Positions 9,599-61,944 of a DNA stretch of 64,000 bases are shown here, piece by piece (within the stretch, counting starts at the first letter, position 1; each line of letters opens with the position of its first letter). The notes beneath the pieces are model-generated. The model saw only the letters and a list, made by a program, of their open reading frames with translations. It was not told the DNA's origin and did not search any database. The stretch comes from Candidatus Woesearchaeota archaeon (GTDB taxonomy: Archaea; Nanobdellota; Nanobdellia; SCGC-AAA011-G17; PNOQ01), in NCBI GenBank assembly GCA_964344555.1, contig CAYFNK010000003.1:9565-73564 (forward strand). Reading direction: 5' to 3'. The position numbers were made by a program, and so were the translations under genes.

Positions 9599-10246
9599 TC
9601 ATTTTTTATTTGAAAATTTTCTTTCAAAATTAAGATACAAATCTTCCATTTTTTTAAGATTTGCTTGCACAGAATTAGATATTTTTTCTATTTTTGTTAT
9701 TTCTCCCTTGACTTGTTTATTTAATTTTACTAATGCTTCACTATCTTTGAATCTTTTTATTGTAGTTCTCATATCTTTCATTTGAGAAAATATCTCATCA
9801 ATCATCCCTCTAAGAGATTCATTCTTAGTTTCAATTTTGTCCAATCTAACATCGTATCTGGCAAAGCCTTTTACAACCTTCTTGGGATTCATTGCTTTAA
9901 CTAAATCAGATGCCTTTTCAGCCTCGGTTTCAATTTTTTTTAATTTCTTTTCTTTTTCAAAGAATAAAGACCTTAAACTACCAATTTGTTCAGAAATATT
10001 ATTTATCTTATCAGAATCAGCCTTTCTAAAATCCTTTAGTATCTCTACCTCTGCTTCGAGTTTTTCAATTACTGCCTGAATTTTAGAATCATCAGAAATA
10101 CTTTGTTTAGGTTCTTCTTTTACTTCCATAGGTTGAGCAGATTGTTTACTCATGGGAGAAACCTCTGGAGCCCCTTTACCTAGGCTTTTTACTCTTTCTA
10201 GAAATCCTCTTTTTTGTGGAGTTTCTTTCTTTTGTTTTTTTGCCAT
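9599..10246 (-). CDS. coiled-coil protein, hypothetical (start probably internal Met near 10153)
   Basis: 215 aa with a heptad-rich Lys/Glu sequence. The N-terminal 31 codons overlap the 3' end of the giant gene in another frame, so the likely start is MSKQSAQP. Confidence 0.45.
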   Translation of the reverse strand: MAKKQKKETPQKRGFLERVKSLGKGAPEVSPMSKQSAQPMEVKEEPKQSISDDSKIQAVIEKLEAEVEILKDFRKADSDKINNISEQIGSLRSLFFEKEKKLKKIETEAEKASDLVKAMNPKKVVKGFARYDVRLDKIETKNESLRGMIDEIFSQMKDMRTTIKRFKDSEALVKLNKQVKGEITKIEKISNSVQANLKKMEDLYLNFERKFSNKK

Positions 10247-35667: not shown

Positions 35668-35785
35668 TGGGTCTGGGCGGATTTGAACCGCCGATCTCTG
35701 GTGTTCTTAGATTTTTGGAGTTAAAATTTGTACCAAAAACGGTCATATAAGACCAGTGCTTTAAACCAGACTAAGCCACAGACCC
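35668..35785 (-). tRNA. Intron-containing tRNA, most likely tRNA-Ile (anticodon TAT); intron of about 42 nt after position 37
   Basis: Reverse complement: acceptor GGGTCTG, D-arm TGGCTTAGTCTGGTTTAAAGCA, anticodon stem CTGGT with loop CTTATA, then an intron (tgaccgtttttggtacaaattttaactccaaaaatctaagaa), then ACCAG, T-arm GGCGGTTCAAATCCGCC and CAGACCCA. Confidence 0.7.
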
Positions 35786-43616: not shown

Positions 43617-46600
43617 TTAACAAGAACTCAAACAAGTTTCCCAATTGTCTTCTAAATAACTTATTCCTTCCTCTCTATTCATATTTTTTAAGGATCCAGA
43701 AGCTTCATTTACTGAATCTGCATACCAAAAAGAATAATAATTTTCATCATTAAGGATTTCCCAATTAGTCCAAAATCCAAACGCCTGTTCTAACCTTCTC
43801 TCCCATTTATTTGATCCATCCCCATCAAATCTAAATTGCACATCTTGGGCAAGAGCAGTACAATCAAAATTAGTACAATATTCTAAACTTATATCTTGTT
43901 GAGTTTCATTTCCAATTTCAAAATCATCTGAATCTCCAGAACTTGTTTCTTCAAAATCTTCATTTGATTCTTCTTCAACAGATTCTTCTTCTTCTTCAGT
44001 TTCAGATTCATATTTACAGGCCTCATAAATTTCATTAATTTCTATATTTTTATAATCTCCAGAGTACTTTTTTTCACCAAGATAGTAAACAAAGAGTTCA
44101 TCTTCATATGCAGGACCTTTTAAAACCAAGATCATTTCCCTTATTCCTTTTTCAAATTTCAAAGACCTATCTATCGATTCTTCATTTATTGAGATTAATC
44201 CTTCGCATAAGTCTGTTATTGCTTCATCCATTTCACTTAAAAAATTGCACTTCTTTTGAGTTATTTCTCTAAATTTATAGAAATGTTCTAATCTTACACC
44301 ATCTCCTTCCGCAAGTAAGGTTTCACTAGTCTTAATTGTCCATAAATTCTTTTCAGCATTGAATCTGAATAGCCAATTAATATCAAAACCATCTTCCTCA
44401 TATTCCATTATACAATTCATTGGCCTATCTTCCCCATCACACGAGGTTAAAACATCTTCATAACTAATATGTATGTGTTCATCATCCCCCTTCAAGTCTT
44501 TCTTCTTAACTATAATATAATCGTCATTTCCTTCATGATCTTCTCCAGACCTAGGGTCATAATTTGAATATTCTATAATTCTTTTAAGTCCATTCGAAAA
44601 ACTAGACTTTCTACCCCCGTCTCTCAAATCACTTATCAATCTAGAGTATATATCTTCTAAAAAGTTACCAGTTCTGTTATCAATATCTTTATAGTTTTTA
44701 TCATATTTTTCCTTCCATTTCCATTCATTACCTATGAACTTAAACATAATATTAACAATCCTATTTTTGGAGTCTTCTTCATATTCTATTTCACAAAGAG
44801 TATCGGGATCTTCTTCATCAGTGATTATAGTTCCATCTTCATCAGTAATAGTTACATTATCAATATCAACTTTTTCTTCCACAGGATAGAAAACATAAGT
44901 ATCTCCAATTACATAATATGCGTCATATTTTGGACCATTAGATTCAGAGAATTCAATAACATCTCTTAATTCAAGTATCCCAAGCTTAACCTCCAATTCA
45001 TCAACTTCATCTTGGCTAACTTGTAGGTCATACTTTTCAATTATCTCTTGAATTAGTTTATTTGCATCTTCTTCATTTTTCTTTATTAAATTAATTGCTT
45101 CTAAAATTTCACTATTTAAGTAATTACTGACCACATCTTTAGAATCTTCACCATGTAAATTCAAACTATCTCTATCCAAATAACAATCTCCTTGCCAAAG
45201 CCCATATTCGTCTTCTCCACAAGTTCCAACTTTTACCCACTTTTCACCACTTCCATCAGGGTCTCCAGTATTGGAACATCTCCTAATCACTCCAGTTTGT
45301 AATAATCCAACTTCAGAAGAAGTAGGGATGCTTCCTAGATTAGGAGTAGTTCTAGGATATTCTGGAACACAATCGCTAGTTCCATTAATATCTCTCTGAG
45401 CCTCAGATTTAACAAGTTCGTCATTCAAGTAATTAACACTAAATGCACTAGTAACTTTTCCAAAATTACAATGAGGAACTCCGTCAAGATCCACACATAG
45501 TTCATCAAATCCAGGCTTGGCAACAAGAGTGAAACTCTTATCAACATACTCTCCAGCCTTCAAGAATCTAGCTCCAGCAAAAACAACATTGCTGTCAAGT
45601 GCACTCTGTATCTCTCCAAGAGAATTCTTCAAATAAACATTATATCTAACATCTCTATCTCTTCCAGAATAAATATGATAATAAACTCTGTATACTGATT
45701 TTCCTCCTTCTACATTAGTATATTCTAATTCATCAACCCATGCAGTAAACTGAGGAGGGCTTGTAGGGTCAGTTATTTGACTTAAGAAATCTCCACCAGT
45801 AGGAACTTTTCCACGAATTGCAGCCTTACAGATTTGTGAACCAAACTCTTCACTACTTCTTTGATTAAATGCAGAAAACGAACTTGTTGCATATTCATTT
45901 GCAAAGTAATCTACACTATCTCCAAGGTTATTGAAAGCATCCTTGAAATTAGTAGGGGCATATGCATCTCCTCCATCAAATCTATTGCTAATTGCCCCAA
46001 CGACTAAATCACTAATCTTTCCAACTGCATCAGTAAGAGCTAAAGCTTCTCTCCATAACATTTCACAAGCATAAATTCCAGTTATTTCATTACAAACTCC
46101 AACATATTCTCCGCCAGTTTTTGCTTTTTGTAAACAATCTTGATATCCTAGATATCCGGTTCTTATGTTATCCAGTCCAGCATGAACTCCAGTTAAACAA
46201 ATAGGTGGAACCCACATATCTCCTCCAAGAGCTACAGAGTTAGGAATTCCTAACATTACACTACCAATTATACCTGTAGAAATAACATCGCTAACTTGCC
46301 ACTTTCCTCCAAGATCAAATCTAGATGCAGGACACATTACAGGATCACAAACATTGAATAAAATCTGACAATCTTTTGCACTCATATAAGATTGACAACT
46401 CCCTCCAGCAAGAGCCTTATCAACTGCATTTTGGAAAGTCTTCATAACAAATTTATTTCCATCTAGATTTACTGTACTTCCTCCTTTGTAATCCTTTTCT
46501 AATGCTTTTTGATCTAGTCTCTTGTAGTATCTTTCCAATTCTTCATGCCTCAATGGATAAAAATCCTCAAACTCATTTTTATTCAATACAACTAAATCAT

Positions 46601-49600
46601 CATTAAGAGTTTCATAAACATTGTAATCAATTAATCCATCAGAACCAACATTAACTATAGAAAATCCTTCAACCTCTCCAAACTGATCAAAATGAGTTAT
46701 AACATAATTCGCATGGTCGCTATACTTGAAGATTCCTGATCGCGCATAGGGATAAGAGAATATCCACAATTTATTATCTTTTAAAGAAATACTAGGGTTT
46801 TCACTAAACTCCTTATTGTATTCTCCTACTTCAACGGTTCTTACAGCATAAATCGTTCCATTTGTATCATTATAGAACGTATCTCCTTTCACAGTTAGAG
46901 GACTTCCCTCTTCATAATCTATACTTTCAACTTTTATTTTTTCTCCACCTGCATAGACATAATGCTCTTCATTTTCTTCTAGCACTTTATCTTTTCTTAT
47001 TGCTTCTTTTCCGGCAGGTAACACATTTTCCTTTAAGAATTCAATTCTGAAATCATCTCCTTCATAGTCACTAGCAGTAGATTTCTCTTCTTCTTCAAAT
47101 ACAGAGGAGATTATCTCACTAACTTTTTCTTTAAACTTAGTATCATTTTTGTCTAGTTCATTAATTTTATTTGCTATCAATTCATAATCATCTTTCTTTG
47201 AAACATCAAACAAAGACTGTTTTTTTATTGCATATGCTTCAAGATCCGTTTCTTTTAACAACAAAAGCTCAGATATATCTTCCGCAGAAACATCTCCAGT
47301 AAATTCATTAGTTTTTAATTGAGAATCTAATAATTCTTTTTCAGTTCTATTTAACAAACTATTTTTTATATACTCTACGGATTCATTGTTTCCAAATTTT
47401 TTTTTGTCAAAAGTTTTAAAAAATCTTTTCTGATTTTGTATTCCTTTATCATATTTTTCGATATAATCTCCTATATCCTCTTTTTCTAACTCTTTATGTT
47501 TCAAACAATTATTTACTTTTTCTTGTATGTCCTTTCCTTCATATCTGTCAGTTTCTTCAGATAATTCGCCAGCACAAACTTCAGTATAATGTTTAATGGC
47601 TGCCTTTCTTGGCTGAATTGTTTTAAGATTTTTCAAAACCAATGCAGAATAAGTTGCTATACATGTTGTTTTCCAGCCTTTGATTAATTTACCCATGCTA
47701 TCAAGAACCTTATCCATTTTCTCAATGGTACTTGCAGTCTTCTCTATTTTCTTATCAATCTCTTCAGGAGTCCATTGTATCAATCTTTTTTCTACAGGCA
47801 AACTTATTGTAAAATCAGAAGAGCCGTACGCCAAACCAGAACCAGGTAATATACTAATTATGGCAGCTTTTTCAAAATTAATTCTTTGAACTTTTATTTT
47901 TGTGTCACCTACATAATTAATTCCAACTGTCAATTCTTTGTCTTCTTCAATATTACTTGGTGAAGTTTTAACTACAACTTTTTCCTTACTTATGCTCTTA
48001 ACTTTCCAGTCATAATCTCTTCCGCCAGGACCTTCAACATCTTTAACTAAAGTATCTCCTATAACATATCTTTTTTCACCAGAAGAAATAGCAATAGTTT
48101 CAAAATCTTCATATTTACTTTTTTTACTATTTACTTTTTCAACATAATCTACATCTGCACCAGATTCACAACCCCAGCCATTATAGGCCCTAATTGCAGC
48201 ATCCCATTCCTTATACTCTCCATATTTTGAATAAGAAGAAATACAATTATTTACGAGTTGTTTGAAATCCCCAATTGAATATTCCTGACTAGATGTAACT
48301 CCGTTCTTATATGAATTATATTTTTGTTTCAATAATTTTGCACCACAGTCAATATTATTATTTACATCTAAGATCTCATTTTCAGTATAGCCACAATCTT
48401 CCCAAGAAACTATTTGCATAACTCCTATTGCTCCAGAACTACTTTTAGTAATGTCATTTTCACCACATTCAAAACTTCCATCTTTACAATGTTTAAAATT
48501 ACTTTCCTGTTCAGCAATAGCTAATAATATATCAATTGGAATATTCCTTGATTCTGATTCTAGCGCAATCAAATTTTGTAGTTCATCTTCTCCACTAATC
48601 TGTTGTTGAGGTTCTTCTCCCTCAATTATTGCAGTAAAATAAGTCTCTTCATGAATTTCTTCAATATCGCTTAAGAAAATAGTTACATCATCTATAAATA
48701 CAGAAGGAATATCTATTTTATCCCTTAAAGATATAATTTTATCTAATACATAGGGCTTATCTGCCAGATATTCTTCACTAATTTTCTCATAATATTCTAA
48801 TCTAATTTTATGTGCTCCAAGTTCTTCATAGGCCTCTGCAATTCTGAGATATGCTTCGTCTCTATCTTTAACATTCTCTGCATAATCCAGAGATAATTTA
48901 TAATCTACAATTCCACTACAAACTAATTGAGTTTTTGTAGCAGTTTCTAGTTCTTCAATCAGAAAGTCTTCATCTAAATGAGGAATATTTTCACAAGGAT
49001 CTTCCAGAACTACAGATTTACTTCCGGAAAGTTCAACTTTATCTCCCTCTTCACTTTCAAAAATTATACTATCAAAAGTTATTTCTTTAACAACCCATGA
49101 ACTACCTATAAAGGGCTTCATTCCCTTAACAACAGTAGTCCTAACAACCTCTCCTTCTTTTTCGACAATTAGTTTTGCATTTGTTTGAGGAGTAAGAACA
49201 TCCTTAAGTTTGACTCTCATCTGATTTGCAAATAAACTAGGTGCTCCCCTAAGATGCGTTTGATATTCTTTTCCTTCTTTTAATTCAAAATTAGATATAG
49301 TTTGTAAGGAACCATCATAAAGTTCAATTTTTGCACTATTCTTATCAATGTCTAATATTCTCACATATCCCCTATTTGACCAGAATGCCCCACTAGTAGG
49401 ATCTCTCAAGAATGAACCTTCTTCTTCAGGATACAAGAAAAGATCCTGTTGACCAAAAAGTCCAAATTTAGAAACTCCATCAAATCTAAATTTAGCGGTA
49501 ACATCAAGTTCAATTTCTTCAGGAATGTCCTCTTCCCTTTCCATCTTCCTAAGATTAACTATGAGATACCCAAGATCTACTTCACCTTTAGAATTAACTC

Positions 49601-49937
49601 TTATTTTATTCCCCCTAGGGAATATTGGATTATTTATTCTGGCAAACTCATGGCCTTCTTTAAGTTGAACAGTAAAACTTTTTATCCCTATTCCTCCAAA
49701 GAAAGGAGCAATATCAGGAGAATCTTCTCCAAATAATAAAGAACCTAAGGTAAATCCTCTAAGGAATACTGTAACCGGAAAATCTCTTGCCTTAAGATAG
49801 TCGGAACTTATACTCATTGGCTCAACGTGATCTACGGATACAGTTATAACTTCTCCAAGATTATTTGGGTCTTCAGCAGAATAAGTAGAACTAACTAATA
49901 AGATCATACAAATCACCAATATCCCGCCCTTTTTCAT
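43617..49937 (-). CDS. Giant secreted protein (2106 aa) containing a lytic transglycosylase (SLT, GH23-like) domain
   Basis: Signal peptide MKKGGILVICMILLVSSTYSA. SLT motifs LLAIAEQESNF...GAIGVMQIV...AYNGWG. A later Cys-rich/hydrophobic region and acidic C-terminal repeats. Confidence 0.8.
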   Translation of the reverse strand: MKKGGILVICMILLVSSTYSAEDPNNLGEVITVSVDHVEPMSISSDYLKARDFPVTVFLRGFTLGSLLFGEDSPDIAPFFGGIGIKSFTVQLKEGHEFARINNPIFPRGNKIRVNSKGEVDLGYLIVNLRKMEREEDIPEEIELDVTAKFRFDGVSKFGLFGQQDLFLYPEEEGSFLRDPTSGAFWSNRGYVRILDIDKNSAKIELYDGSLQTISNFELKEGKEYQTHLRGAPSLFANQMRVKLKDVLTPQTNAKLIVEKEGEVVRTTVVKGMKPFIGSSWVVKEITFDSIIFESEEGDKVELSGSKSVVLEDPCENIPHLDEDFLIEELETATKTQLVCSGIVDYKLSLDYAENVKDRDEAYLRIAEAYEELGAHKIRLEYYEKISEEYLADKPYVLDKIISLRDKIDIPSVFIDDVTIFLSDIEEIHEETYFTAIIEGEEPQQQISGEDELQNLIALESESRNIPIDILLAIAEQESNFKHCKDGSFECGENDITKSSSGAIGVMQIVSWEDCGYTENEILDVNNNIDCGAKLLKQKYNSYKNGVTSSQEYSIGDFKQLVNNCISSYSKYGEYKEWDAAIRAYNGWGCESGADVDYVEKVNSKKSKYEDFETIAISSGEKRYVIGDTLVKDVEGPGGRDYDWKVKSISKEKVVVKTSPSNIEEDKELTVGINYVGDTKIKVQRINFEKAAIISILPGSGLAYGSSDFTISLPVEKRLIQWTPEEIDKKIEKTASTIEKMDKVLDSMGKLIKGWKTTCIATYSALVLKNLKTIQPRKAAIKHYTEVCAGELSEETDRYEGKDIQEKVNNCLKHKELEKEDIGDYIEKYDKGIQNQKRFFKTFDKKKFGNNESVEYIKNSLLNRTEKELLDSQLKTNEFTGDVSAEDISELLLLKETDLEAYAIKKQSLFDVSKKDDYELIANKINELDKNDTKFKEKVSEIISSVFEEEEKSTASDYEGDDFRIEFLKENVLPAGKEAIRKDKVLEENEEHYVYAGGEKIKVESIDYEEGSPLTVKGDTFYNDTNGTIYAVRTVEVGEYNKEFSENPSISLKDNKLWIFSYPYARSGIFKYSDHANYVITHFDQFGEVEGFSIVNVGSDGLIDYNVYETLNDDLVVLNKNEFEDFYPLRHEELERYYKRLDQKALEKDYKGGSTVNLDGNKFVMKTFQNAVDKALAGGSCQSYMSAKDCQILFNVCDPVMCPASRFDLGGKWQVSDVISTGIIGSVMLGIPNSVALGGDMWVPPICLTGVHAGLDNIRTGYLGYQDCLQKAKTGGEYVGVCNEITGIYACEMLWREALALTDAVGKISDLVVGAISNRFDGGDAYAPTNFKDAFNNLGDSVDYFANEYATSSFSAFNQRSSEEFGSQICKAAIRGKVPTGGDFLSQITDPTSPPQFTAWVDELEYTNVEGGKSVYRVYYHIYSGRDRDVRYNVYLKNSLGEIQSALDSNVVFAGARFLKAGEYVDKSFTLVAKPGFDELCVDLDGVPHCNFGKVTSAFSVNYLNDELVKSEAQRDINGTSDCVPEYPRTTPNLGSIPTSSEVGLLQTGVIRRCSNTGDPDGSGEKWVKVGTCGEDEYGLWQGDCYLDRDSLNLHGEDSKDVVSNYLNSEILEAINLIKKNEEDANKLIQEIIEKYDLQVSQDEVDELEVKLGILELRDVIEFSESNGPKYDAYYVIGDTYVFYPVEEKVDIDNVTITDEDGTIITDEEDPDTLCEIEYEEDSKNRIVNIMFKFIGNEWKWKEKYDKNYKDIDNRTGNFLEDIYSRLISDLRDGGRKSSFSNGLKRIIEYSNYDPRSGEDHEGNDDYIIVKKKDLKGDDEHIHISYEDVLTSCDGEDRPMNCIMEYEEDGFDINWLFRFNAEKNLWTIKTSETLLAEGDGVRLEHFYKFREITQKKCNFLSEMDEAITDLCEGLISINEESIDRSLKFEKGIREMILVLKGPAYEDELFVYYLGEKKYSGDYKNIEINEIYEACKYESETEEEEESVEEESNEDFEETSSGDSDDFEIGNETQQDISLEYCTNFDCTALAQDVQFRFDGDGSNKWERRLEQAFGFWTNWEILNDENYYSFWYADSVNEASGSLKNMNREEGISYLEDNWETCLSSC

Positions 49938-52294: not shown

Positions 52295-53233
52295 ATGAAA
52301 TCCAAAGATATAATTGAACAGAAGTATAAAAATGTAACCTGTCCTAAATGCAATTCTAATCGGGTTAAGAAAGATGGAAAAAGAAAAACTAACAACAGAG
52401 GCAAAATACAAAGATACAGATGTAAAGAATGTAATCTTAGGTTTGTAGTTGATGATGGTTTTTACAGAATGAGAAACCATCCAAATAAAATTACTGCTGG
52501 AATTGATTTGTATTATAAGGGCGTTTCTTTAAGAAAAGTGCAAGAACATTTTCAAGCTTTTTATCCTCATAATTCAAGCCATATGTCAGTTTACAGATGT
52601 ATAGTAAAATATGCTGAGATGGTAGGAAACTTAGTTGATAATATTCCAATAAAATGCGGAAAGGAAATGCAAAGCGATGAAATGGAATATTATAGAAGAA
52701 AAAGTAAATACTACAAAGGCAAAGAACAAAATTGGTTTGTTGATACTTTTGATGTAGAAACTAAATTTATGGTAACTGGAAATTATATGGGAAGTAGGAC
52801 TAATGAAAACTTAATCAAAGTTATGAAAAGAGCTAAATTCAAAACAGGCGAACAAGTCGAGATTGTAACAACAGATGGATTAAGAGGTTATCCGAGAGTG
52901 TTAAGAAAAACATTCAGCTTACAATCTCCTTATCGTGCATCTTCAAAAACCAAAAGTAAGATAATTCACAATGTTGTTATAGCAGATGAGAGAGGTTATA
53001 ATTATCCTATTGAAAGATTGCACAATACAATAAGGGAGAGAACAAAAGTAATGCGTGGTTTTCATGGTTGTATAGAAAGTGCTCATGCGATTATGAAAGG
53101 TTTAGAGATTAATTATAATTTTAATAGAAGGCATATGTCTTTAGGCAAAAAGACACCTGCCGAGATTGCTATACCTCAATTAGAATTAGGAGTTAATAAG
53201 TGGTTAGATTTGATTAGGATATCAAAATTATGA
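52295..53233 (+). CDS. DDE transposase with N-terminal zinc ribbon (IS1595/IS6-like), copy 2 (diverged)
   Basis: 312 aa. Same architecture as 28457..29401 (CPKC...CKEC, KGVSLRKVQEHFQAFYP, SDEMEY, TTDGLRGY, IERLHNTIRERTK...RGFHG). No TIRs recognised around it. Confidence 0.75.
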   Translation: MKSKDIIEQKYKNVTCPKCNSNRVKKDGKRKTNNRGKIQRYRCKECNLRFVVDDGFYRMRNHPNKITAGIDLYYKGVSLRKVQEHFQAFYPHNSSHMSVYRCIVKYAEMVGNLVDNIPIKCGKEMQSDEMEYYRRKSKYYKGKEQNWFVDTFDVETKFMVTGNYMGSRTNENLIKVMKRAKFKTGEQVEIVTTDGLRGYPRVLRKTFSLQSPYRASSKTKSKIIHNVVIADERGYNYPIERLHNTIRERTKVMRGFHGCIESAHAIMKGLEINYNFNRRHMSLGKKTPAEIAIPQLELGVNKWLDLIRISKL

Positions 53234-53863
53234 TTATATATCACCAATATCCCACAAATAATATATATTTTTGATTGATTTAATTTTAATCTTTTTTATA
53301 GGTTCTCCTATTAAAACTGCCTTATATCCCACATTTAATGCAGGAACTATATCGACTTCTAAGTTATTACCTACAATGAGAACTTCCTCTTTTTTCAATT
53401 TGTTTTCCTTTCTTATATATTCATAAACAGGTAATTTGGATGTTCTTGGAAGAAAATCTACTGAATAATATGTTTTTTTAATTAAATTATTTATTCCTAA
53501 TGTTCTTTGCAGATTTTTTGAATATTTCTTTGAAGAAAAGGTCACTACGAATTTTTTTCCTTTTAGGTTTTTTAAGATAGAGATAAGTTTTTCATCTCTA
53601 GACAGATATTTATTTGGTTTTGTGGCATCAAAAACATTTTTATGGTAATTTTTTATAGATAGACTTAATGATTGAAATCCTTCTAAAGCATTAGGATATT
53701 TTTTTGGGAGTTTTCTATATAAATCCTCCATTTCCTTTTTATCTAAGGAAAGTCTATCCATTATCCATTTTTTAGTTTTCTCCCTTAAAATATTTGTAAG
53801 CTCGCTCTTCTCTGGATAAAAAGTTCCGTCTTGATCAAATATAAAACATTTAATTTCTTTCAT
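53234..53863 (-). CDS. HAD-superfamily hydrolase
   Basis: 209 aa. Motif I FIFDQDGTFY. Later motifs include KGKKFVVTFSSKKY and IVGNNLEVDI. Confidence 0.7.
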   Translation of the reverse strand: MKEIKCFIFDQDGTFYPEKSELTNILREKTKKWIMDRLSLDKKEMEDLYRKLPKKYPNALEGFQSLSLSIKNYHKNVFDATKPNKYLSRDEKLISILKNLKGKKFVVTFSSKKYSKNLQRTLGINNLIKKTYYSVDFLPRTSKLPVYEYIRKENKLKKEEVLIVGNNLEVDIVPALNVGYKAVLIGEPIKKIKIKSIKNIYYLWDIGDI

Positions 53864-54855
53864 GGTCTAAAAACTATTTTAATAGCTCCCGAATCTTTTT
53901 TATTTTTTATTAAGTTTAATCCTTTCTTAAATTCCTTCAAAGGTATTGTGTGAGTTATAATTTTTGAGAATCTTGTTCTTAATTTTTTTAACAAATTTAT
54001 TGCAATATCAAATTCGTTTTTTCCATTAAAAAAACCATAAGAATTTGAGCCGAGAATTTTTGCTTCTTTATAAAAGGTATCTCTTAAAGGAATTTTACCC
54101 AAAAAATTTTTTTCAAATACTCCAAGAACTATTATTTTACCATGTGGCTTTATGAGCCTTATAGCTTGCTGTAATGTTTTGTCTTGCTTTCTTCCGACAA
54201 TCTCAAAAATGATATCATAATCCTTCATTAACTTTTTGGCCCTATTAATTTTTAGAGTATCTATTCCAAGAGTGGAAGCTAATTTTAAATTTCTATCATT
54301 TTTTCCAATAATTGTTACTTTGTTTCCAAATTCAAGACAAAGGAGACCTGTGATTAATGCGAGAGACCCATCTCCAATTACCAGTATATCTTTTTTAGTA
54401 GGAGAATCCGAAAGATTATATCCATGTAATGCTACTGCAATACTATCTACTAATACAGCTTCTTCAAATTTTATACTAGAAGGAATTTTCTTTAAATTTT
54501 GATACGGAACTAAAAGAAACTCTGCAAAACCTCCAGGATAATCCTTGCCTATAGATTTGGTTTTGATAATGTCTTCATTTTTCTTTCTAACTAAAGTGTT
54601 TACAACTACTCTATCTCCTACTTTAAATTTTTTTACATTTTTCCCAACTTCTTGTATTACGCCAGAAATTTCATGACCCCAAATTTTTGTTTTTACTGAA
54701 TTTAAGGCCTTTCGATCAGAAAATAATTTCCGGGTATCACTTCCACAGAGTCCAGCAGCTCTTACATTTACTTTTATATAATCTTTTTTTGTTTTTGGTT
54801 CTTTAATTTCCTTATAATCTATTTTTCCATTCTTAGAGATAATTATTGCTTTCAT
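53860..54855 (-). CDS. Zinc-binding alcohol dehydrogenase family (MDR) oxidoreductase
   Basis: 331 aa: GLCGSD, GHEISGVI, GDGSLALITG Rossmann motif. Confidence 0.8.
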   Translation of the reverse strand: MKAIIISKNGKIDYKEIKEPKTKKDYIKVNVRAAGLCGSDTRKLFSDRKALNSVKTKIWGHEISGVIQEVGKNVKKFKVGDRVVVNTLVRKKNEDIIKTKSIGKDYPGGFAEFLLVPYQNLKKIPSSIKFEEAVLVDSIAVALHGYNLSDSPTKKDILVIGDGSLALITGLLCLEFGNKVTIIGKNDRNLKLASTLGIDTLKINRAKKLMKDYDIIFEIVGRKQDKTLQQAIRLIKPHGKIIVLGVFEKNFLGKIPLRDTFYKEAKILGSNSYGFFNGKNEFDIAINLLKKLRTRFSKIITHTIPLKEFKKGLNLIKNKKDSGAIKIVFRP

Positions 54856-54856
54856 T

Positions 54857-55978
54857 TTATAGATGCTTCTTTATTTTTTTCTCATCTCCATTTGTTTCTT
54901 TAATTACTTCTAACAATTTTTTAAAGGGGAGTCCTTTTTTAATAACTTTTTTAGAAATCATATAACCTTCTTTAAGATTTTTTGCTTTTTTAGCTAAATA
55001 AAGAATTGTTCCAGCATCGATACAGATTATGTCTTCTCTTGCTTTTTCACCTTTGCCCCTTAGAACATCTATAGCCAGTTTAATATTATCTTTTTTATTC
55101 TCTCCTTCACAAATATCTTTAGGTTTATATTTTGGTAATTTTAATTCAGTCAATGGATTAAATGTTTTGGTATATCCTATCTTGCCATTCTGAATACCTT
55201 TTATTTTAGTTAATCCATAAACACCCATTTCATCAATGTAATGTATTTTATCATTAGTTGTAGAAGCCACCATTACATTGTTAATTCCGAATTTTTTCAA
55301 AACATTTACAGCGAGATCTATGTTTGGGTGGGCTAAACCATATAAAAAGTTGTCATATTTAATTGGGCTTGCCAATGCGGCTAAACCAAAACTCAGGGCA
55401 TGTGGAGCATAAAATTTTTTCGCATAAATTGAATCAAATTTGGGTAAGAGACTTTCTATTGTAAATACTCCAAATCTTGTTTTTGTTATTATTTTTTCCA
55501 TTTCTTTAACTGAGAGATTAAGATTTATCCCAACTTCTCGCAGAAGATCTGCAGAGCCAGTTAAAGAACTTGTAGAACTAGAAGCCACTTTTGCTGTAAA
55601 TGCGCCGGCACTCGCAGCAGTTAAAAGCGCAGGTGTAGAAATATTCATTGTCTTTACTCCCTTTTTCCCGCTACCTATTGCTCCCACTAGTACTTCTCCT
55701 AGAGGAATTTTTATTTTGTGTCTTTTCTTAGGATTAAATTTATCTAATTTGAAGACAGATTTTAATAGTGTTACAATTTCATCTGTTGTTGGTCCTCTTG
55801 ACATTATTCCAGTTAAGATTGCTCCCAATTGGATATCTCTTATTGATTGTTTGGGATTAGATAGAACAGAATCAAAAGCTTTTTCTAGAAGCCTAAGATC
55901 TATTTTTGATTGGACATTAAGCCTATACAAAACTTCACTAACTGCATCATTTTTATCTATTCTTTCCATTTTGAGCAT
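54857..55978 (-). CDS. Glycosyl transferase family 3 protein (anthranilate/nucleoside phosphoribosyltransferase-like, TrpD-like)
   Basis: 373 aa. GSGKKGVKTMNISTPALLTAASAG and SLTGSADLLREVG correspond to the TrpD GTGGD...NIST and SADVLEALG blocks. Confidence 0.6.
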   Translation of the reverse strand: MLKMERIDKNDAVSEVLYRLNVQSKIDLRLLEKAFDSVLSNPKQSIRDIQLGAILTGIMSRGPTTDEIVTLLKSVFKLDKFNPKKRHKIKIPLGEVLVGAIGSGKKGVKTMNISTPALLTAASAGAFTAKVASSSTSSLTGSADLLREVGINLNLSVKEMEKIITKTRFGVFTIESLLPKFDSIYAKKFYAPHALSFGLAALASPIKYDNFLYGLAHPNIDLAVNVLKKFGINNVMVASTTNDKIHYIDEMGVYGLTKIKGIQNGKIGYTKTFNPLTELKLPKYKPKDICEGENKKDNIKLAIDVLRGKGEKAREDIICIDAGTILYLAKKAKNLKEGYMISKKVIKKGLPFKKLLEVIKETNGDEKKIKKHL

Positions 55979-57027
55979 ATTTTTATTAGAACATTAGCAT
56001 AATCTCTCTTTGCCTCTTCCCAGTCTGAGCCTCTCTTTAAACATAAACGATATAATTTCTTAATTTCTTCTGCAGTATAATAACTTACAGAAGCCATCAT
56101 TTGATAAACAACATTATTCTCTGGTTTATCATATTTCCCTTCACCATTGATTATCTTATCCCTTATTTCTTCTGATTTCATATTCACATTAATACTTGAT
56201 TTTGGAAAGCTCTTTGACATCTTTGGATAATCATAAAAGCCTTTTATCATTGGAGAATAAATCGCAGAAAGAGTCATATTGAAATTATTAAATTGTTTAC
56301 TTTTTTTCATTCTCTTTATTGTTTCTTTTCCAAATCTAATATATTGGTGTTCATCTATACCAAGCATAACGAGGACATTTTTATACTTTTTAGCCATATG
56401 AAGATGGATGAAATCTGCAATCATCAGATTTAAAGATAATTTTCTTCGGTAACTCATCCCTTTATCTACCTTACCTCTTTTATGATAGAAAGAATGAAGG
56501 TCTTCTTCAGCTTCATTAAACATTTTATCGTCCATGAAATGTCCTATAATGTAAGCTGTCCGTAAAATGTCTAGTTTATCATATTGTGCCCTAAGAATAG
56601 ATCCCTTTCTCTTATTAAAACCAAGAGATAATATAAACTTCTCATATTTTTTTGCTAATTCCAGTGTTCTTTTCAAATCAATATTTTTACCATTATAAGC
56701 ATCTAAATCCCCTAATACTATCTGAACAGGAATGCCTGCTTTTTGTAATGCTATTGATCTCAAAATTTGTGAAAGTGTTCCTACATGTGGTTCTCCTGAT
56801 AATCCAAATCCCGTACTTACAATTACTTTTTTACCTTCTCTTAAATCTTTAGCAAAGCTTTTTCCATCATGATGACACAACCACATTCTTTGAAGGTCGT
56901 CTTTTTTTAAATTTCCCAGTGAAAAATTAATCTTCTCAAATTCTAATGGATTATAACCAAATTCCTTCATAAGAGGATTATAATATTTTTTGTCGAAGAC
57001 TACTATTATTTCTCTCTTTTTTGCCAT
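55957..57027 (-). CDS. Class Ic aminoacyl-tRNA synthetase, TrpRS-like (degenerate HIGH motif)
   Basis: 356 aa. KMSKS is present. The HIGH position reads GEPHVGT. The Rossmann core resembles archaeal TrpRS/TyrRS. Confidence 0.5.
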   Translation of the reverse strand: MAKKREIIVVFDKKYYNPLMKEFGYNPLEFEKINFSLGNLKKDDLQRMWLCHHDGKSFAKDLREGKKVIVSTGFGLSGEPHVGTLSQILRSIALQKAGIPVQIVLGDLDAYNGKNIDLKRTLELAKKYEKFILSLGFNKRKGSILRAQYDKLDILRTAYIIGHFMDDKMFNEAEEDLHSFYHKRGKVDKGMSYRRKLSLNLMIADFIHLHMAKKYKNVLVMLGIDEHQYIRFGKETIKRMKKSKQFNNFNMTLSAIYSPMIKGFYDYPKMSKSFPKSSINVNMKSEEIRDKIINGEGKYDKPENNVVYQMMASVSYYTAEEIKKLYRLCLKRGSDWEEAKRDYANVLIKICSKWKE

Positions 57028-57029
57028 TT

Positions 57030-58043
57030 CTATCCATAAGCCTTTTTATGAAGATTTAGCAATTCTTTATCGTCTCTAAATCTTCTTAATAAGAGATTTA
57101 ATTCTTTAGCAACTGCATTTTTTAAATCCAATGGATGTAGTTTTTTGGATTTGAAGTCTTTTTCAATTTCTTCATAACTTCCATACTCAATATTTCCTCC
57201 AAACTTCTCAGATCTTTCAACTGTGAAACCTCTTTTTGCATCTTTTTTCAAGATCATAATCAAATATTTTAAAAGAGACATTATTCCATTATCAGGATCT
57301 CCCTCAATACACTCTGCACCATTTATCTTTTTCTTGAGATTATCTTCATTATCTAGTAAATCAATTTTTGTTGCTTCTATGCTAGAACTCATTTTTTCAC
57401 CGACTAATCCTCTAATCATTGGAGACATTAACTCTACTCTTGGTTTATATCCAATCTTTGGAAGATATTCTCTAGCGTAAACCATTATCTTTCTTTGATC
57501 TAATCCAGCATATTGAATATCTACTTTAAGGTATTCTTCATCTAATGTTTGCATTATGGGATAAACAAGATTCCCTAAAAGAGGATTATCTGTCATCTTC
57601 ACTACTTCAGATGCTGCTTTATTGCAATTTCTAATAGTAGAAACCATACCTAATTTCAATACATCTTCAAAATACTTTCCATTTAATTGTAAATTGCTCC
57701 CCTTAACAAATTCAAGTTTTTTTATGTCCACCCCAATTGTTTTTAAGATTAGAACTATTGCTTTTTTATAGTATTCCGTTCTTTTCTCTAATAACTCCCA
57801 TGGAACTCCATCTAAGGCCGCATGTAAATCTGCTAATAGAATTTTAACCTTTAATCCAGCCTTTAAAAAATCAGCTATTTTTAACATCGGAAAAAAATAC
57901 GCTATAGAGATACTTCCTGTAGGCATAGTCCCCCAATAAACAGAGATTTCTTTTTTCTTCTTCAATAATTCCTCTAACTCCTCTTTTGTGATTACCTCTT
58001 GCAAATTCCTCGTTATTAAATTGATTCTTTCTTTTAATTCCAC
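57030..58043 (-). CDS. tyrS: Archaeal-type tyrosyl-tRNA synthetase (HIGH replaced by ISIAY)
   Basis: 337 aa. Collinear with the M. jannaschii-type TyrRS (LLADLHA, YPIMQ, KMSSS, KFGGxxxxxSYEExExxFKxKxLHPxDLKNAVAxEL). The HIGH site is PTGSISIAYF. Confidence 0.7.
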   Translation of the reverse strand: MELKERINLITRNLQEVITKEELEELLKKKKEISVYWGTMPTGSISIAYFFPMLKIADFLKAGLKVKILLADLHAALDGVPWELLEKRTEYYKKAIVLILKTIGVDIKKLEFVKGSNLQLNGKYFEDVLKLGMVSTIRNCNKAASEVVKMTDNPLLGNLVYPIMQTLDEEYLKVDIQYAGLDQRKIMVYAREYLPKIGYKPRVELMSPMIRGLVGEKMSSSIEATKIDLLDNEDNLKKKINGAECIEGDPDNGIMSLLKYLIMILKKDAKRGFTVERSEKFGGNIEYGSYEEIEKDFKSKKLHPLDLKNAVAKELNLLLRRFRDDKELLNLHKKAYG

Positions 58044-58091
58044 CTTAATATTTTTAGATAAAACTTATTTATAAAGATGTTTATTTGATTC

Positions 58092-59303
58092 TTACTCTTT
58101 TTCATATTTTAATCTTCTAAAATATCTTTTTCCAATTTGAACAACTTGGTCGTCCCGAGGAGAAACAACATAGCTGATATCATTAATAGTCTCCCCATCA
58201 AGTCTTACTCCACCTTGCTCTATAAGTCTCCTAGCTTCACTATTAGAACTTATCCTTCCCATCTGTCTAAGAACTTTCACAATTGACAAACCATCCTCAT
58301 TTGTTGCATATTTTATAACCTGTTCTTCTAATTTCTCTGGAACATTCTTTTTTCTGTGTACATAGTTGAATCTTTCTTCAGCAGAGATTGCAAGATTTTG
58401 GTCGTGATATCTAGAGATAATTTCCCTTGCTAATCTTTGTTTGTACTCCATAGGATTCACACTTCCAGAAGAAATAGCTGTTCTAATCTCTTGAAATTCT
58501 TCTAAAGGAGTTTCAGATAGTAACTCATAATATTTTAGCATTAAATCATCAGAAATAGACATTATTTTTCCGTACATATCATTAGGATTATCATTTACAC
58601 CTATTGCATTTCCAAAACTTTTGCTCATCTTCCTAACACCATCTACTCCTTCGAGCAAAGGAAGCGATATGATCACTTCTGGTTCTTGTCCATATGCTTT
58701 TTGTATTTCTCGACTTGCCATGAAATTAAATAATTGGTCTGTTCCTCCGATTTCTACATCGCTTTTAAGGTGTACAGAGTCATAGCCAACGAGAAGGGGG
58801 TACAACAATTCAGTAACAGAGAGTGGTCTACTCTGTTTTATTCTCTCTCCAAAATCTCTTCTCTGTAAAAGCTGTTGAACTGTATATTTTGAACCCAATT
58901 TAATAACATCTGTTCCAGAAAATCTTTCTAACCACTGGCCATTATATACCAAATCGGTTCTATCAGGATCTAAAATCTTAAAGACTTGTTTTTGATATGT
59001 CTTCATGTTGCTCTCTATTTCTTCTCTAGTTAGTGTAGGTCTTGTTTCACTTCTTCCACTTGGATCACCTATCATTGCAGTATAATCTCCTATTATCAAT
59101 TGGATATTGTGTCCTGAATCTTGAAACTGTTTTAATTTTTGTAAAGGTACAGTGTGACCTAGGTGAATATCTGGAGCTGTAGGATCCACTCCAAATTTAA
59201 CATTAAGGGGTCTATTTTGTTTTAGTTTTCTAACTAACTCTTCTTCTGCGAGGATATCTACAGAGCCCCTTCTAATTTCTCCTAATTGGTCTTCAAGTGT
59301 CAT
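58092..59303 (-). CDS. tyrS: Bacterial-type tyrosyl-tRNA synthetase with C-terminal S4 domain
   Basis: 403 aa. HIGH motif DIHLGHTVPL, GDYTAMIGDPSG, QxxDxG, KMSKS. C-terminal S4 RNA-binding domain (ARRLIEQGGVRLDGETIND). Confidence 0.8.
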   Translation of the reverse strand: MTLEDQLGEIRRGSVDILAEEELVRKLKQNRPLNVKFGVDPTAPDIHLGHTVPLQKLKQFQDSGHNIQLIIGDYTAMIGDPSGRSETRPTLTREEIESNMKTYQKQVFKILDPDRTDLVYNGQWLERFSGTDVIKLGSKYTVQQLLQRRDFGERIKQSRPLSVTELLYPLLVGYDSVHLKSDVEIGGTDQLFNFMASREIQKAYGQEPEVIISLPLLEGVDGVRKMSKSFGNAIGVNDNPNDMYGKIMSISDDLMLKYYELLSETPLEEFQEIRTAISSGSVNPMEYKQRLAREIISRYHDQNLAISAEERFNYVHRKKNVPEKLEEQVIKYATNEDGLSIVKVLRQMGRISSNSEARRLIEQGGVRLDGETINDISYVVSPRDDQVVQIGKRYFRRLKYEKE

Positions 59304-60688: not shown

Positions 60689-60958
60689 TTATTTTTTATT
60701 TATTCTTCTAACCGTTGAAGCTCTTATGAATGCAAAAATTATTCCAATTCCAATAAGAACATAAAAACTTGTGAATATTTTTCCAGCGTCAGTTATGGGA
60801 ACTAAATCTCCATAACCAACAGTAGTCAAAGTTATTACACTAAAATACATTGAATCTAGAACATTCCAACCTTCAACAAAGTTATAAAATAAAGTTCCTA
60901 TTAACAACGTTATAATTACTGTAGAAATTAATATATTAAATGTGTGTTCGTCATTCAT
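60689..60958 (-). CDS. Minimal 2-TM potassium channel (89 aa), pore only
   Basis: TM1, pore helix and selectivity filter TLTTVGYGD, TM2. No cytoplasmic domain. Confidence 0.75.
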   Translation of the reverse strand: MNDEHTFNILISTVIITLLIGTLFYNFVEGWNVLDSMYFSVITLTTVGYGDLVPITDAGKIFTSFYVLIGIGIIFAFIRASTVRRINKK

Positions 60959-60993: not shown

Positions 60994-61944
60994 CTAAATA
61001 CTTCCTCCCCAGTAATCTCCAGAACATTCTGCAACTTCTAAATCCCCTGTTGGAACACAAGTTATATTACTCAAACCACCCTCACAATGAAATCCAGTAG
61101 TGATTTGTCCATTTGCCCAACGATTAAACATATCTACTAAATCAAGAGTATCAAATAAACAAATACCCTCTATGCCTATACTTGAAGATAGATCATTTTG
61201 CATATCTTGTTGAATTTGAACTATCTGTTCCTGAGTTTGTCCCGCTTCTAAATAATTGTTTATAGCTTCTTCAGTAAAGATTAATGAATAATCTTCATGG
61301 ACTAAATAATACTCACATTTACCAGATTCTATGCCTCTAATTTCAAAATGATCCATAGAAGTTATTTGAACTCCATAAAACACAGCCACACCATGCATAT
61401 CATATTCTACTAATTCACAATTTTCAGCCGCGTTTGCAACACAGCTATAAACTGACTCAGCATTTGTTGTTTCCCCCTCATCAAATGGATTATCTTCTAC
61501 ATACCTAGTTATAACTCCACAATCAATAATTTCCCCTTCTACAACTTCTTCTGAACTTTCTTCTTCACCAGATTCTTCTTCAGAACTTTCTTCGTCTGAG
61601 GATTCTTCATCGCTAGATTCTTCTTCAGAATCTTCTCTTGATTCTTCTTCAGCAGGTTCATCAGCTTCTTCTGAATCTTCCATATCTTCATCAGATGATT
61701 CTTCGTCAGATTTTTCTTCAGAAGCAGATTCCCCAGTAGTTTCTGTTGTAGGGAGTGTACTAACACCAGATCCTGGTTCTTGAGTAGAGAGTAAAAAAAA
61801 CAAAATACCAGAAATAAAAACTAAAATAAAGATAGAGAGGAACAACAACTTTTTATTTGAGTTTTGAAGAAGATTATGATTATCCTCCCACATGCTATTT
61901 CCTTCTACTTCAATATCCTCATTATAAAATGAATCATCAGCCAT
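60994..61944 (-). CDS. membrane-anchored acidic, Cys-rich hypothetical protein
   Basis: 316 aa. TM LLFLSIFILVFISGILFFLL. Long Ser/Glu/Asp low-complexity tract (ESSDEESSDEE...). C-terminal Cys-containing globular domain. Confidence 0.5.
   Translation of the reverse strand: MADDSFYNEDIEVEGNSMWEDNHNLLQNSNKKLLFLSIFILVFISGILFFLLSTQEPGSGVSTLPTTETTGESASEEKSDEESSDEDMEDSEEADEPAEEESREDSEEESSDEESSDEESSEEESGEEESSEEVVEGEIIDCGVITRYVEDNPFDEGETTNAESVYSCVANAAENCELVEYDMHGVAVFYGVQITSMDHFEIRGIESGKCEYYLVHEDYSLIFTEEAINNYLEAGQTQEQIVQIQQDMQNDLSSSIGIEGICLFDTLDLVDMFNRWANGQITTGFHCEGGLSNITCVPTGDLEVAECSGDYWGGSI

Follow-up and report, generated by a model that had tools for sequence, protein, structure and literature searches.

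The DNA considered here, a stretch of 64,000 nucleotides from contig CAYFNK010000003.1 of a Candidatus Woesearchaeota archaeon (the window), carries a six-gene operon on the minus strand (53234-59303), the first three genes of which code for proteins of the class Ic aminoacyl-tRNA synthetase type. With moderate confidence, this locus is taken to be an archaeal tyrocitabine-type (tyb-like) operon devoid of a nonribosomal peptide synthetase (NRPS), in which a bacterial-type tyrosyl-tRNA synthetase (TyrRS) would be the probable self-resistance or target copy, and a eukaryote-like TyrRS reading S-I-A-Y at the HIGH signature would be the host enzyme. The window has about 31% GC and contains an archaeal rRNA operon and an RNase P RNA, belonging to a DPANN archaeon, and the nearest homologues of its proteins are named Woesearchaeota or Nanoarchaeota. 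The three class Ic open reading frames (ORFs), placed head to tail at 55957-57027, 57030-58043 and 58092-59303, were all matched by PF00579, the Pfam family of class I tryptophanyl- and tyrosyl-tRNA synthetases. The preliminary description had located this trio correctly and had overlooked its membership in the larger operon. From 5′ to 3′, the operon genes are separated by gaps of 48 nt and 2 nt, followed by two overlaps and a 1-nt gap, in this order, with the flanking gene given last:

58092-59303, minus strand: bacterial-type TyrRS with a C-terminal S4 domain, cluster-associated copy and candidate self-resistance or target copy (TIGR00234, S4 domain, DPANN clade)
57030-58043, minus strand: eukaryote-like (archaeal/eukaryotic type) TyrRS with a GTG start, presumed housekeeping (NF006330, human TyrRS match)
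55957-57027, minus strand: TybB-like class Ic adenylate-forming enzyme, the "TrpRS-like" gene, without S4 domain (family alignment, AlphaFold model, Bacillus match)
54857-55978, minus strand: TybC-like protein of glycosyltransferase family 3 (GT3, TrpD fold), overlapping the upstream gene by 22 nt (sub-threshold TIGR01245 match, Bacillus GT3 match)
53860-54855, minus strand: TybE-like Zn-dependent medium-chain dehydrogenase/reductase of polyol or polyol-phosphate type (solved relatives, Bacillus alcohol dehydrogenase match)
53234-53863, minus strand: HAD-family phosphatase, pyrimidine 5′-nucleotidase-like below threshold, last operon gene (domain match)
52295-53233, plus strand: IS-type transposase (InsA-like zinc ribbon and DDE/rve-like), outside the cluster (domain match)

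The tyb-like core of the operon

The third gene (55957-57027) had been taken for a relative of the tryptophanyl-tRNA synthetase (TrpRS). However, its protein falls far below every TrpRS cut-off, scoring 72.8 against 176.75 for TIGR00233 and 82.7 against 451 for NF008925. The tyrosine that contacts the substrate ring (Y32 in Methanocaldococcus jannaschii TyrRS, presumably equivalent to human TrpRS Y159) is not conserved, the profile alignment placing Ser71 at this position and the family presenting Ser, Thr or Ala. A housekeeping TrpRS was ruled out by these scores and by the loss of this tyrosine, together with the canonical TrpRS found in related genomes and the presence of the family in Firmicutes. 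The family is small, with 275 matches at E <1e-5, and its members are named "hypothetical protein" by NCBI. It shares the invariant motifs WLCH, PHxGT, GDLDA, MSYRRKLSLNLMxADF, GIDEH, PKMSKS and PENNV, among which the window protein has WLCH at 56872-56883, KMSKS at 56209-56223 and H-V-G-T at residues 81-84 (56776-56787), so that the non-canonical HIGH reported for this gene proved to be genuine. PF00579 was the only domain found, no S4 domain being present, and H-x-G-T and KMSKS are invariant, as in a TybB-type enzyme. The AlphaFold (AF2) model of the protein (pLDDT 87, pTM 0.88) presented the full archaeal/eukaryotic TrpRS-TyrRS fold, with a TM score of 0.70 at 16-19% identity.

Another candidate identity was the TrpRS-A-like system of CPR bacteria (candidate phyla radiation) and DPANN archaea, where TrpRS-A or TrpRS-A-like genes are always linked to ORF1 and to a tRNA-Trp(A73) (Mukai et al. 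2017, PMC5370408). This candidate was rejected because the gene context differs: no TrpD-like or dehydrogenase neighbours were described by Mukai et al., and the tyb-like loci examined showed neither an ORF1-like gene nor a tRNA-Trp in linkage. As a separate observation, an isolated relic of 132 nt in a Nanoarchaeota genome (H51-bin114_1, locus L045, 8213-8344) has 87% DNA identity to window positions 56735-56866, inside the tybB-like gene; it adjoins a canonical archaeal TrpRS gene, which suggests either the loss of the cluster in a relative or a chimeric assembly.

The next gene (54857-55978) codes for a protein in which the TrpD fold is complete (93 bits to PDB 9UCW) and which scored 145 bits against a cut-off of 199 for TIGR01245. 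Its GTGGD motif is replaced by GSGKKG (55658-55675), invariant in 29 family members, and KHGN by KVAS; the protein retains the DE motif and shows no conservation of the anthranilate-binding region. The alternatives that it could be a TrpD2/YbiB DNA-binding protein or a true anthranilate phosphoribosyltransferase were discarded on the basis of the full TrpD fold, the family's own GSGKKG motif and the degenerate anthranilate site, and no literature support for either identity was found. The best solved relatives of the dehydrogenase (53860-54855) are galactitol-1-phosphate 5-dehydrogenase, RspB and sorbitol/xylitol dehydrogenases. In other loci, the HAD protein shares one polypeptide with either a shikimate-kinase-like P-loop domain or the cluster TyrRS.

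This gene content recalls the tyrocitabine pathway of Lactobacillus iners. In this organism, TybC uses phosphoribosyl pyrophosphate (PRPP) to glycosylate tyrosine, with an Amadori rearrangement, and TybE brings the TybC product into a linear form by reduction (Patel et al. 2022, as described in PMC13235161). AMP is attached to the carboxylate by TybB, a Rossmann protein resembling TyrRS but devoid of a tRNA-binding domain, and acylation by the NRPS TybD gives a prodrug; the exporter is TybA, and the set includes a phosphopantetheinyl transferase (PPTase) (PMC13235161). The same 2026 review states that related tyb clusters occur in archaea and in many "Candidatus" bacteria and that the tyrocitabine target is unknown. 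The window likewise has an S4-less TyrRS/TrpRS-like Rossmann enzyme beside a PRPP-type glycosyltransferase and a reductase, here a GT3 protein of TrpD fold and a Zn-dependent alcohol dehydrogenase (ADH) in one operon. Moreover, a Bacillus pseudomycoides cluster encodes homologues of the four proteins (TrpRS-like 54%, GT3 46%, Zn-ADH 38% and HAD 35% identity to the window) and runs on into MFS, NRPS (C-A-PCP-C) and PPTase genes, and a second Bacillus-type NRPS contig has the same set with an upstream TyrRS and a radical-SAM/SPASM gene. Since this Bacillus architecture corresponds to the published tyb layout, 53234-57027 was assigned as a minimal, NRPS-less tyb-like core. Compared with the L. 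iners cluster, that of the window lacks an NRPS, a PPTase and an exporter, adds the HAD gene and carries two full-length TyrRS genes at its head.

Linkage of the module to tyrosyl-tRNA synthetases

The linkage of these genes was followed in 36 genome loci from GTDB species genomes and in 80 metagenome loci, where gene order and counts were read directly. In the GTDB species scan, the TrpRS-like family was found in archaea (Woesearchaeota, Nanoarchaeota and Aenigmatarchaeota), in CPR bacteria (Magasanik-, Moran-, Doudna- and Kaiserbacteria and Saccharimonadia) and in other bacteria (gut Clostridia, Bacilli, Thermodesulfobacteriota and Acidobacteriaceae), and this spread matches the archaeal and "Candidatus" distribution reported for tyb clusters. 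The neighbours of the TrpRS-like gene were GT3 (27 of 36 genome loci), ADH (26/36), HAD (18/36) and a HinT-like HIT protein (11/36). A TyrRS-family gene was present in 30 of these loci, being of the bacterial type in 26, and the 80 metagenome loci revealed the same pattern. Altogether, the bacterial-type TyrRS stands beside the tyb-like core in most of about 120 loci, and in almost all of those of sufficient length. The NRPS (TybD), the PPTase and the exporter (TybA) were absent from the window and from the 36 genome and 80 metagenome loci, and present in the Bacillus relatives.

On the sequences compared, the tybB-, tybC- and tybE-like genes with the HAD gene are a horizontally spread module. 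The IS-type transposase at 52295-53233 directly abuts the last gene of the operon, and a Y1 (IS200/IS605) transposase flanks the Magasanikbacteria copy (loci L005-L007). As the module nearly always travels with a bacterial-type TyrRS, this linkage explains the presence of a bacterial TyrRS in an archaeon. In DPANN loci, three arrangements were found:

Arrangement 1: bacterial-type TyrRS, S-I-A-Y TyrRS, tybB-, tybC- and tybE-like genes and HAD (the window, L003, L010, L012-L014, L018, L051, L052 and L057; partial in L011 and L076)
Arrangement 2: bacterial-type TyrRS, long canonical archaeal TyrRS (374-380 aa, HLGT, 420 bits to NF006330) and tybB-, tybC- and tybE-like genes (L016, L040 and many metagenome loci)
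Arrangement 3: bacterial-type TyrRS, HIT and tybB-, tybC- and tybE-like genes, without archaeal TyrRS (L008, L017, L019, L062 and L069)

A host-type TyrRS of either kind is thus found repeatedly between the cluster TyrRS and tybB, which parallels the T-box-regulated tyrS placed beside the cluster copy in Bacilli. The simplest idea is that a host TyrRS inside the cluster allows the co-regulation of sensitive and insensitive enzymes.

Other roles for the module were also considered. A genetic-code-expansion cassette (pyl-like) with a dedicated tRNA was rejected, since no consistent tRNA gene was found across 35 loci and the tRNA near the operon in the window is an ordinary tRNA-Val(GAC). Similarly, an anti-phage defence system was set aside for lack of meaningful PADLOC matches, and viral carriage because none was found in IMG/VR.

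Several cluster variants were observed along with the linkage. In an uncultured Bacilli locus (L030, 5550-9992), the TybB-like gene is surrounded by CysNC (an APS kinase fusion) and a sulfotransferase, and another Bacilli variant (L039, 7362-14250) contains an APH-type kinase, a 562-aa protein, a CAT-like acetyltransferase, a YgjV membrane protein and a GNAT protein, with no TrpD-like gene or ADH. Radical-SAM genes, some with SPASM, were found in or beside tyb-like clusters (L008, 9058-10066; L037, 15533-16444; L048, 75-989; L131, 2050-2919), that of L008 being preceded by a 48-aa duplicate of the TrpD-like N-terminus. Some contigs with DPANN/CPR-type clusters (L017, L019 and L020; P0156, P0177, P0273 and P0281) are labelled Bacteroidota, Methanosarcinales, Gammaproteobacteria, Heimdallarchaeaceae or Thorarchaeota, probably owing to binning errors.

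The distribution of these genes bears on whether the module makes an antibiotic at all. An alternative for DPANN and CPR hosts is the synthesis or salvage of an everyday metabolite, for instance a cofactor or signal derived from ribityl- or ribosyl-tyrosine; the TyrRS linkage would then mean that both are regulated together according to tyrosine supply. Indeed, neither exporter nor NRPS nor PPTase occurs in the DPANN, CPR and Clostridia versions, the hosts have small, auxotrophic genomes, and a housekeeping TyrRS gene adjoins the cluster time and again, namely the T-box tyrS in Bacilli and the archaeal one in DPANN. However, the patchy, horizontally spread distribution with flanking transposases, the tailoring or resistance genes typical of the Bacilli variants (sulfotransferase with CysNC, APH, CAT-like and GNAT), the adjacent HIT hydrolases and the antimicrobial nature of the characterized relative make such a role rather improbable.

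The two tyrosyl-tRNA synthetases of the operon

The protein encoded by 57030-58043 passes the curated TyrRS model NF006330 (294 bits, cut-off 220) and, among solved enzymes, matches the human cytoplasmic TyrRS best (339 bits), followed by those of yeast (292), Archaeoglobus fulgidus (235) and M. jannaschii (180). Its S-I-A-Y (residues 46-49, 57897-57908) aligns with H-L-G-H in the M. jannaschii TyrRS and with H-V-A-Y in the human one, no histidine being present in the window motif. To establish the motif norm of eukaryote-like TyrRS, 1.8 billion representatives were searched: those nearest to the window protein at the 50%-identity level (35-51% identity) carry HIGY, HIAY, HLGY, HVAY or HVGY, that is H-[IVL]-[AG]-Y, and HLGH or HIGH occurred in only 11 of about 146 scored domains. 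Consequently, the alanine and the tyrosine are the norm of the subfamily, and the real oddity is the replacement of the first-position histidine, common to the subfamily signature, by serine. The "archaeal TyrRS with a degenerate HIGH" of the preliminary description therefore does have a non-HIGH motif, in a eukaryote-like enzyme where only the first histidine, and not the whole motif, is unusual.

The variant signature motifs are conserved features rather than noise, and on this point the preliminary description is supported. S-[IVLF]-A-Y was found in 120 of the 120 closest homologues (68-94% identity). The tyrosine-binding residues Y32, Y151, Q155, D158 and Q173 (M. jannaschii numbering) are all present in the window copy and invariant in the clade. 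KMSSS lies at 57381-57395, with an MSSS core invariant in the clade, and the G34-binding residues F261, H283 and D286 are also present, D286 being invariant and H283 kept in at least 90% of the clade. Because the motif is invariant in 120 homologues and the tyrosine- and anticodon-binding residues are kept, the gene is, as judged from its conservation, not decaying. At the strongly conserved positions, the S-I-A-Y clade differs from its histidine-type relatives in only two respects (human numbering): His49 is replaced by Ser and Lys84 is lost through a two-residue deletion after LDxx (the "KA" of human K84-A85). Lys84 is missing too in two of the three other Ser-first representatives, and these changes hint at a coupled remodelling of the ATP-phosphate site. 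In comparison with the human cytoplasmic TyrRS (PDB 1N3L/5THH), its best solved relative, the window copy shares the A-Y of the signature, KMSSS and the tyrosine- and anticodon-binding residues, and differs by the serine and the deleted K84-A85. Bacterial TrpRS, where T-I-G-N stands for HIGH, is an active class Ic enzyme with a hydroxyl residue for the first histidine; being another enzyme with another fourth residue, it serves as a precedent only. The S-I-A-Y protein is quite likely the working TyrRS of the lineage, with a histidine-less signature.

Related genomes also bear on this point. Apart from the operon, the S-I-A-Y TyrRS was found on three contigs: one of 382 kb, where it is flanked by Kae1 and Rpp14; one of 652 kb, where it stands alone; and one of 617 kb, where ProRS and GatD are close by and the adjoining gene codes for a canonical archaeal TrpRS (495 bits, cut-off 478). 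None of the three could be matched to a bacterial-type TyrRS or a TrpRS-like cluster in the match lists, which is suggestive, not conclusive: co-occurrence was judged by matching "longest contig" values between match lists, an imperfect approach, as exemplified by a cluster on a 51,374-bp contig seen only among the metagenome loci.

The other possibility raised in the preliminary description was that the bacterial-type enzyme, acquired horizontally, had taken over tyrosine charging, the archaeal-type copy being in decay or non-catalytic (e.g., only tRNA- or tyrosine-binding). The S-I-A-Y clade has indeed lost the only histidine of the signature and the conserved lysine (human K84) near the ATP site, both TyrRS genes are co-transcribed in the window, and the remodelled acceptor-contact helix of the DPANN bacterial copy is consistent with the use of archaeal tRNA. 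However, the signature, the binding residues and KMSSS are invariant in the clade, the S-I-A-Y TyrRS evolves no faster than its neighbours and stands without the cluster in housekeeping neighbourhoods of 382-652-kb contigs, and the presence of the bacterial TyrRS is accounted for, since it accompanies the tyb-like module in bacteria already possessing a tyrS of their own. Hence, neither the takeover nor the decay found support, and this explanation is distinctly improbable.

The bacterial-type TyrRS (58092-59303) passes TIGR00234 by a wide margin (366 bits, cut-off 113.8) and presents HLGH at 59154-59165, KMSKS at 58617-58631 and an S4 domain at residues 341-384, as had been described. Its nearest relatives form a DPANN-only clade, at or above about 56% identity, followed at no more than 54% by ordinary bacterial TyrRS from Desulfomonilia, Saccharicenans, Atribacteria and Anoxybacter, one of which lies in a housekeeping context, adjoining RNase Y and ZapA/B; this agrees with the bacterial origin proposed earlier. 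The third-position GC of the gene is host-like and its Arg/Lys usage is still foreign; therefore, the transfer was bacterial in origin but old. With respect to the substrate-binding residues of the Bacillus stearothermophilus TyrRS, Asp78, Tyr169 and Asp176 are kept and Gln173 is replaced by valine (Val172, within 58779-58796). The acceptor-contact helix is remodelled to QQLLQRRD (58854-58877). In the work of Fersht and Bedouelle, Gln173 is reported to bind the alpha-ammonium group of the substrate, and Glu152 to be part of the surface contacting the acceptor stem. Gln173 became valine and the position equivalent to Glu152 became arginine in every DPANN copy examined, and 98% of bacterial relatives keep the glutamine. 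The changes in the acceptor helix would fit an adaptation to the archaeal C1-G72 tRNA-Tyr.

The DPANN cluster copies, the window's included, form one clade apart from the TyrRS of bacterial clusters, and three mutually unrelated types were recognized:

DPANN type, in DPANN archaea and three unlabelled metagenome loci: Gln173 to Val, Asp to Arg at the Glu152-equivalent position, and neighbouring Ala, Arg and Glu to Gln
Long type (445-485 aa), in Clostridia and Acidobacteria: Gln173 to Met
CPR/Bacillus type, in CPR and Bacillus: Gln kept, KQSKS for KMSKS

The housekeeping TyrRS of the same loci, T-box-regulated or distant, keep the glutamine and KMSKS/KMGKT. Such a second tyrS besides the cluster copy was found in Bacilli and Clostridia loci, the T-box upstream of the housekeeping gene having a UAC (Tyr) specifier, and two Bacilli loci have the cluster TyrRS in tandem with the Tyr-T-box tyrS, of which it is a duplicate with 75-84% identity. 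In most of the tyb-like loci, an extra copy of the presumed target synthetase is present, distinct from the housekeeping one, and the tRNA-binding architecture (helical domain and S4) is complete in every cluster copy. In some loci the HAD protein (residues 1-205) and a KQSKS-type cluster TyrRS are fused into single ORFs of 619-631 aa (L074, 4160-6052; L075, L080, L086 and L095).

These fusions, present in at least four distinct loci, are what would be expected if the cluster TyrRS were biosynthetic, for example activating or handing over tyrosine or N-glycated tyrosine, the exchange of Gln173 for Val or Met opening the alpha-amino pocket. In line with this, the alpha-ammonium-binding Gln173 was replaced in two independent cluster lineages, and a TyrRS is found even in an NRPS-type cluster, which itself has a prodrug self-protection route. 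However, a pure adenylating enzyme tends to lose the helical and S4 domains, as TybB did, and the cluster copies keep them; moreover, the Bacilli cluster copy is a near-identical duplicate of the housekeeping tyrS. A biosynthetic role is accordingly regarded as unlikely.

Elsewhere in the window, no tRNA-Tyr gene was found. A tRNA with a 43-nt intron and a UAU (Ile) anticodon lies at 35668-35785 (minus strand), matched by Rfam and missed by ARAGORN; tRNA-Ile(UAU) is unusual in archaea, where AUA is normally decoded by an agmatidine-modified CAU anticodon. Two giant ORFs for a small-genome archaeon (10176-18059, 2627 aa, and 43617-49937, 2106 aa, both on the minus strand) were also present, as well as an 89-aa protein with the K+-channel pore signature TVGYGD (60689-60958, minus strand), adjoining a 316-aa protein (60994-61944, minus strand) that contains a long acidic stretch rich in Ser, Glu and Asp and ends in a Cys-rich part.

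Predicted pathway and self-protection

By analogy with L. iners, we infer the chemistry of the module as follows. The TrpD-like enzyme would transfer phosphoribosyl from PRPP onto the amino group of tyrosine, the Zn-dehydrogenase would reduce the rearranged sugar to its open-chain form, and the HAD enzyme would probably remove the phosphate. The TrpRS-like enzyme, by means of H-x-G-T and KMSKS, would then adenylate the carboxylate with ATP, yielding an N-substituted tyrosyl-adenylate analogue. The bacterial-type TyrRS would most likely be a tRNA-charging enzyme insensitive to this tyrosyl-adenylate mimic or titrating it, its alpha-amino-binding position being changed (Gln173 to Val) and its acceptor helix remodelled (Asp to Arg), the latter as expected if it were adapted to archaeal tRNA-Tyr. 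The middle gene would supply the organism's own TyrRS, predicted to work with a serine for the single histidine of H-x-A-Y, as in the T-I-G-N of bacterial TrpRS.

The resistance role is suggested by the repeated and independent recruitment of a full-length, tRNA-competent TyrRS beside a predicted tyrosyl-adenylate pathway, which is a classic signature of a self-resistance or target copy. The cluster copies deviate at adenylate or amino-acid contacts (Q173V, Q173M or KQSKS, according to type), and a HinT-like HIT hydrolase often adjoins the cluster. Self-resistance synthetase copies are known from antibiotic clusters, such as the TrpRS of indolmycin, the IleRS of mupirocin and the SerRS of albomycin (PMC9437257). 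As in those clusters, a second, divergent synthetase is encoded with a pathway that would mimic the reaction intermediate of that synthetase; unlike them, the DPANN spare copy comes from another domain of life, the Bacilli copy is a near-identical tandem duplicate, and the resistance is predicted. The idea that NRPS clusters lack a TyrRS, the two being alternative self-protection routes, was refuted by locus L131, which has both.

Some findings weigh against reading the locus as a tyrocitabine-type operon with a self-resistance TyrRS and an S-I-A-Y host enzyme. The homology to TybB, TybC and TybE rests on the Bacillus cluster architecture and the review description, and the antibiotic nature of the product is predicted by analogy for a window cluster that has no NRPS, exporter or PPTase. 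Gln173 is kept in the CPR-type and Bacilli cluster copies, the HAD-TyrRS fusion of several loci fits a biosynthetic TyrRS equally well, and the absence of both His49 and Lys84 from the S-I-A-Y clade could mean a reduced adenylation activity.

A broader proposal, tentative and held with less than even confidence, is that every tyb-like cluster, whether in Bacillus or in DPANN archaea, recruits its own TyrRS from independent sources (three bacterial subtypes altered at adenylate or alpha-amino contacts, tandem duplicates and HAD fusions), which would make TyrRS the target of tyrocitabine-type compounds. The DPANN copy might then be inhibitor-resistant and re-tuned to archaeal tRNA-Tyr, and the S-I-A-Y TyrRS a second, independently evolved, inhibitor-tolerant and fully active enzyme. 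No statement of the consistent TyrRS linkage, or of TyrRS as the tyrocitabine target, was found in the accessible literature. This linkage, together with the target role that it suggests, is the most valuable part of the present analysis, offering a directly testable hypothesis for the tyrocitabine target.

In the context of a tiny archaeal genome, translation genes that seemed redundant or decaying would thus turn out to be a horizontally acquired small-molecule pathway with a probable immunity gene. Moreover, the operon supplies two natural variants, namely a bacterial TyrRS that seems to have adapted to an archaeal host, having valine for Gln173, and a eukaryote-like one whose HIGH signature lacks histidine altogether. 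The two variants are relevant to the question of how essential the textbook residues of these enzymes are and to the engineering of orthogonal TyrRS/tRNA pairs.

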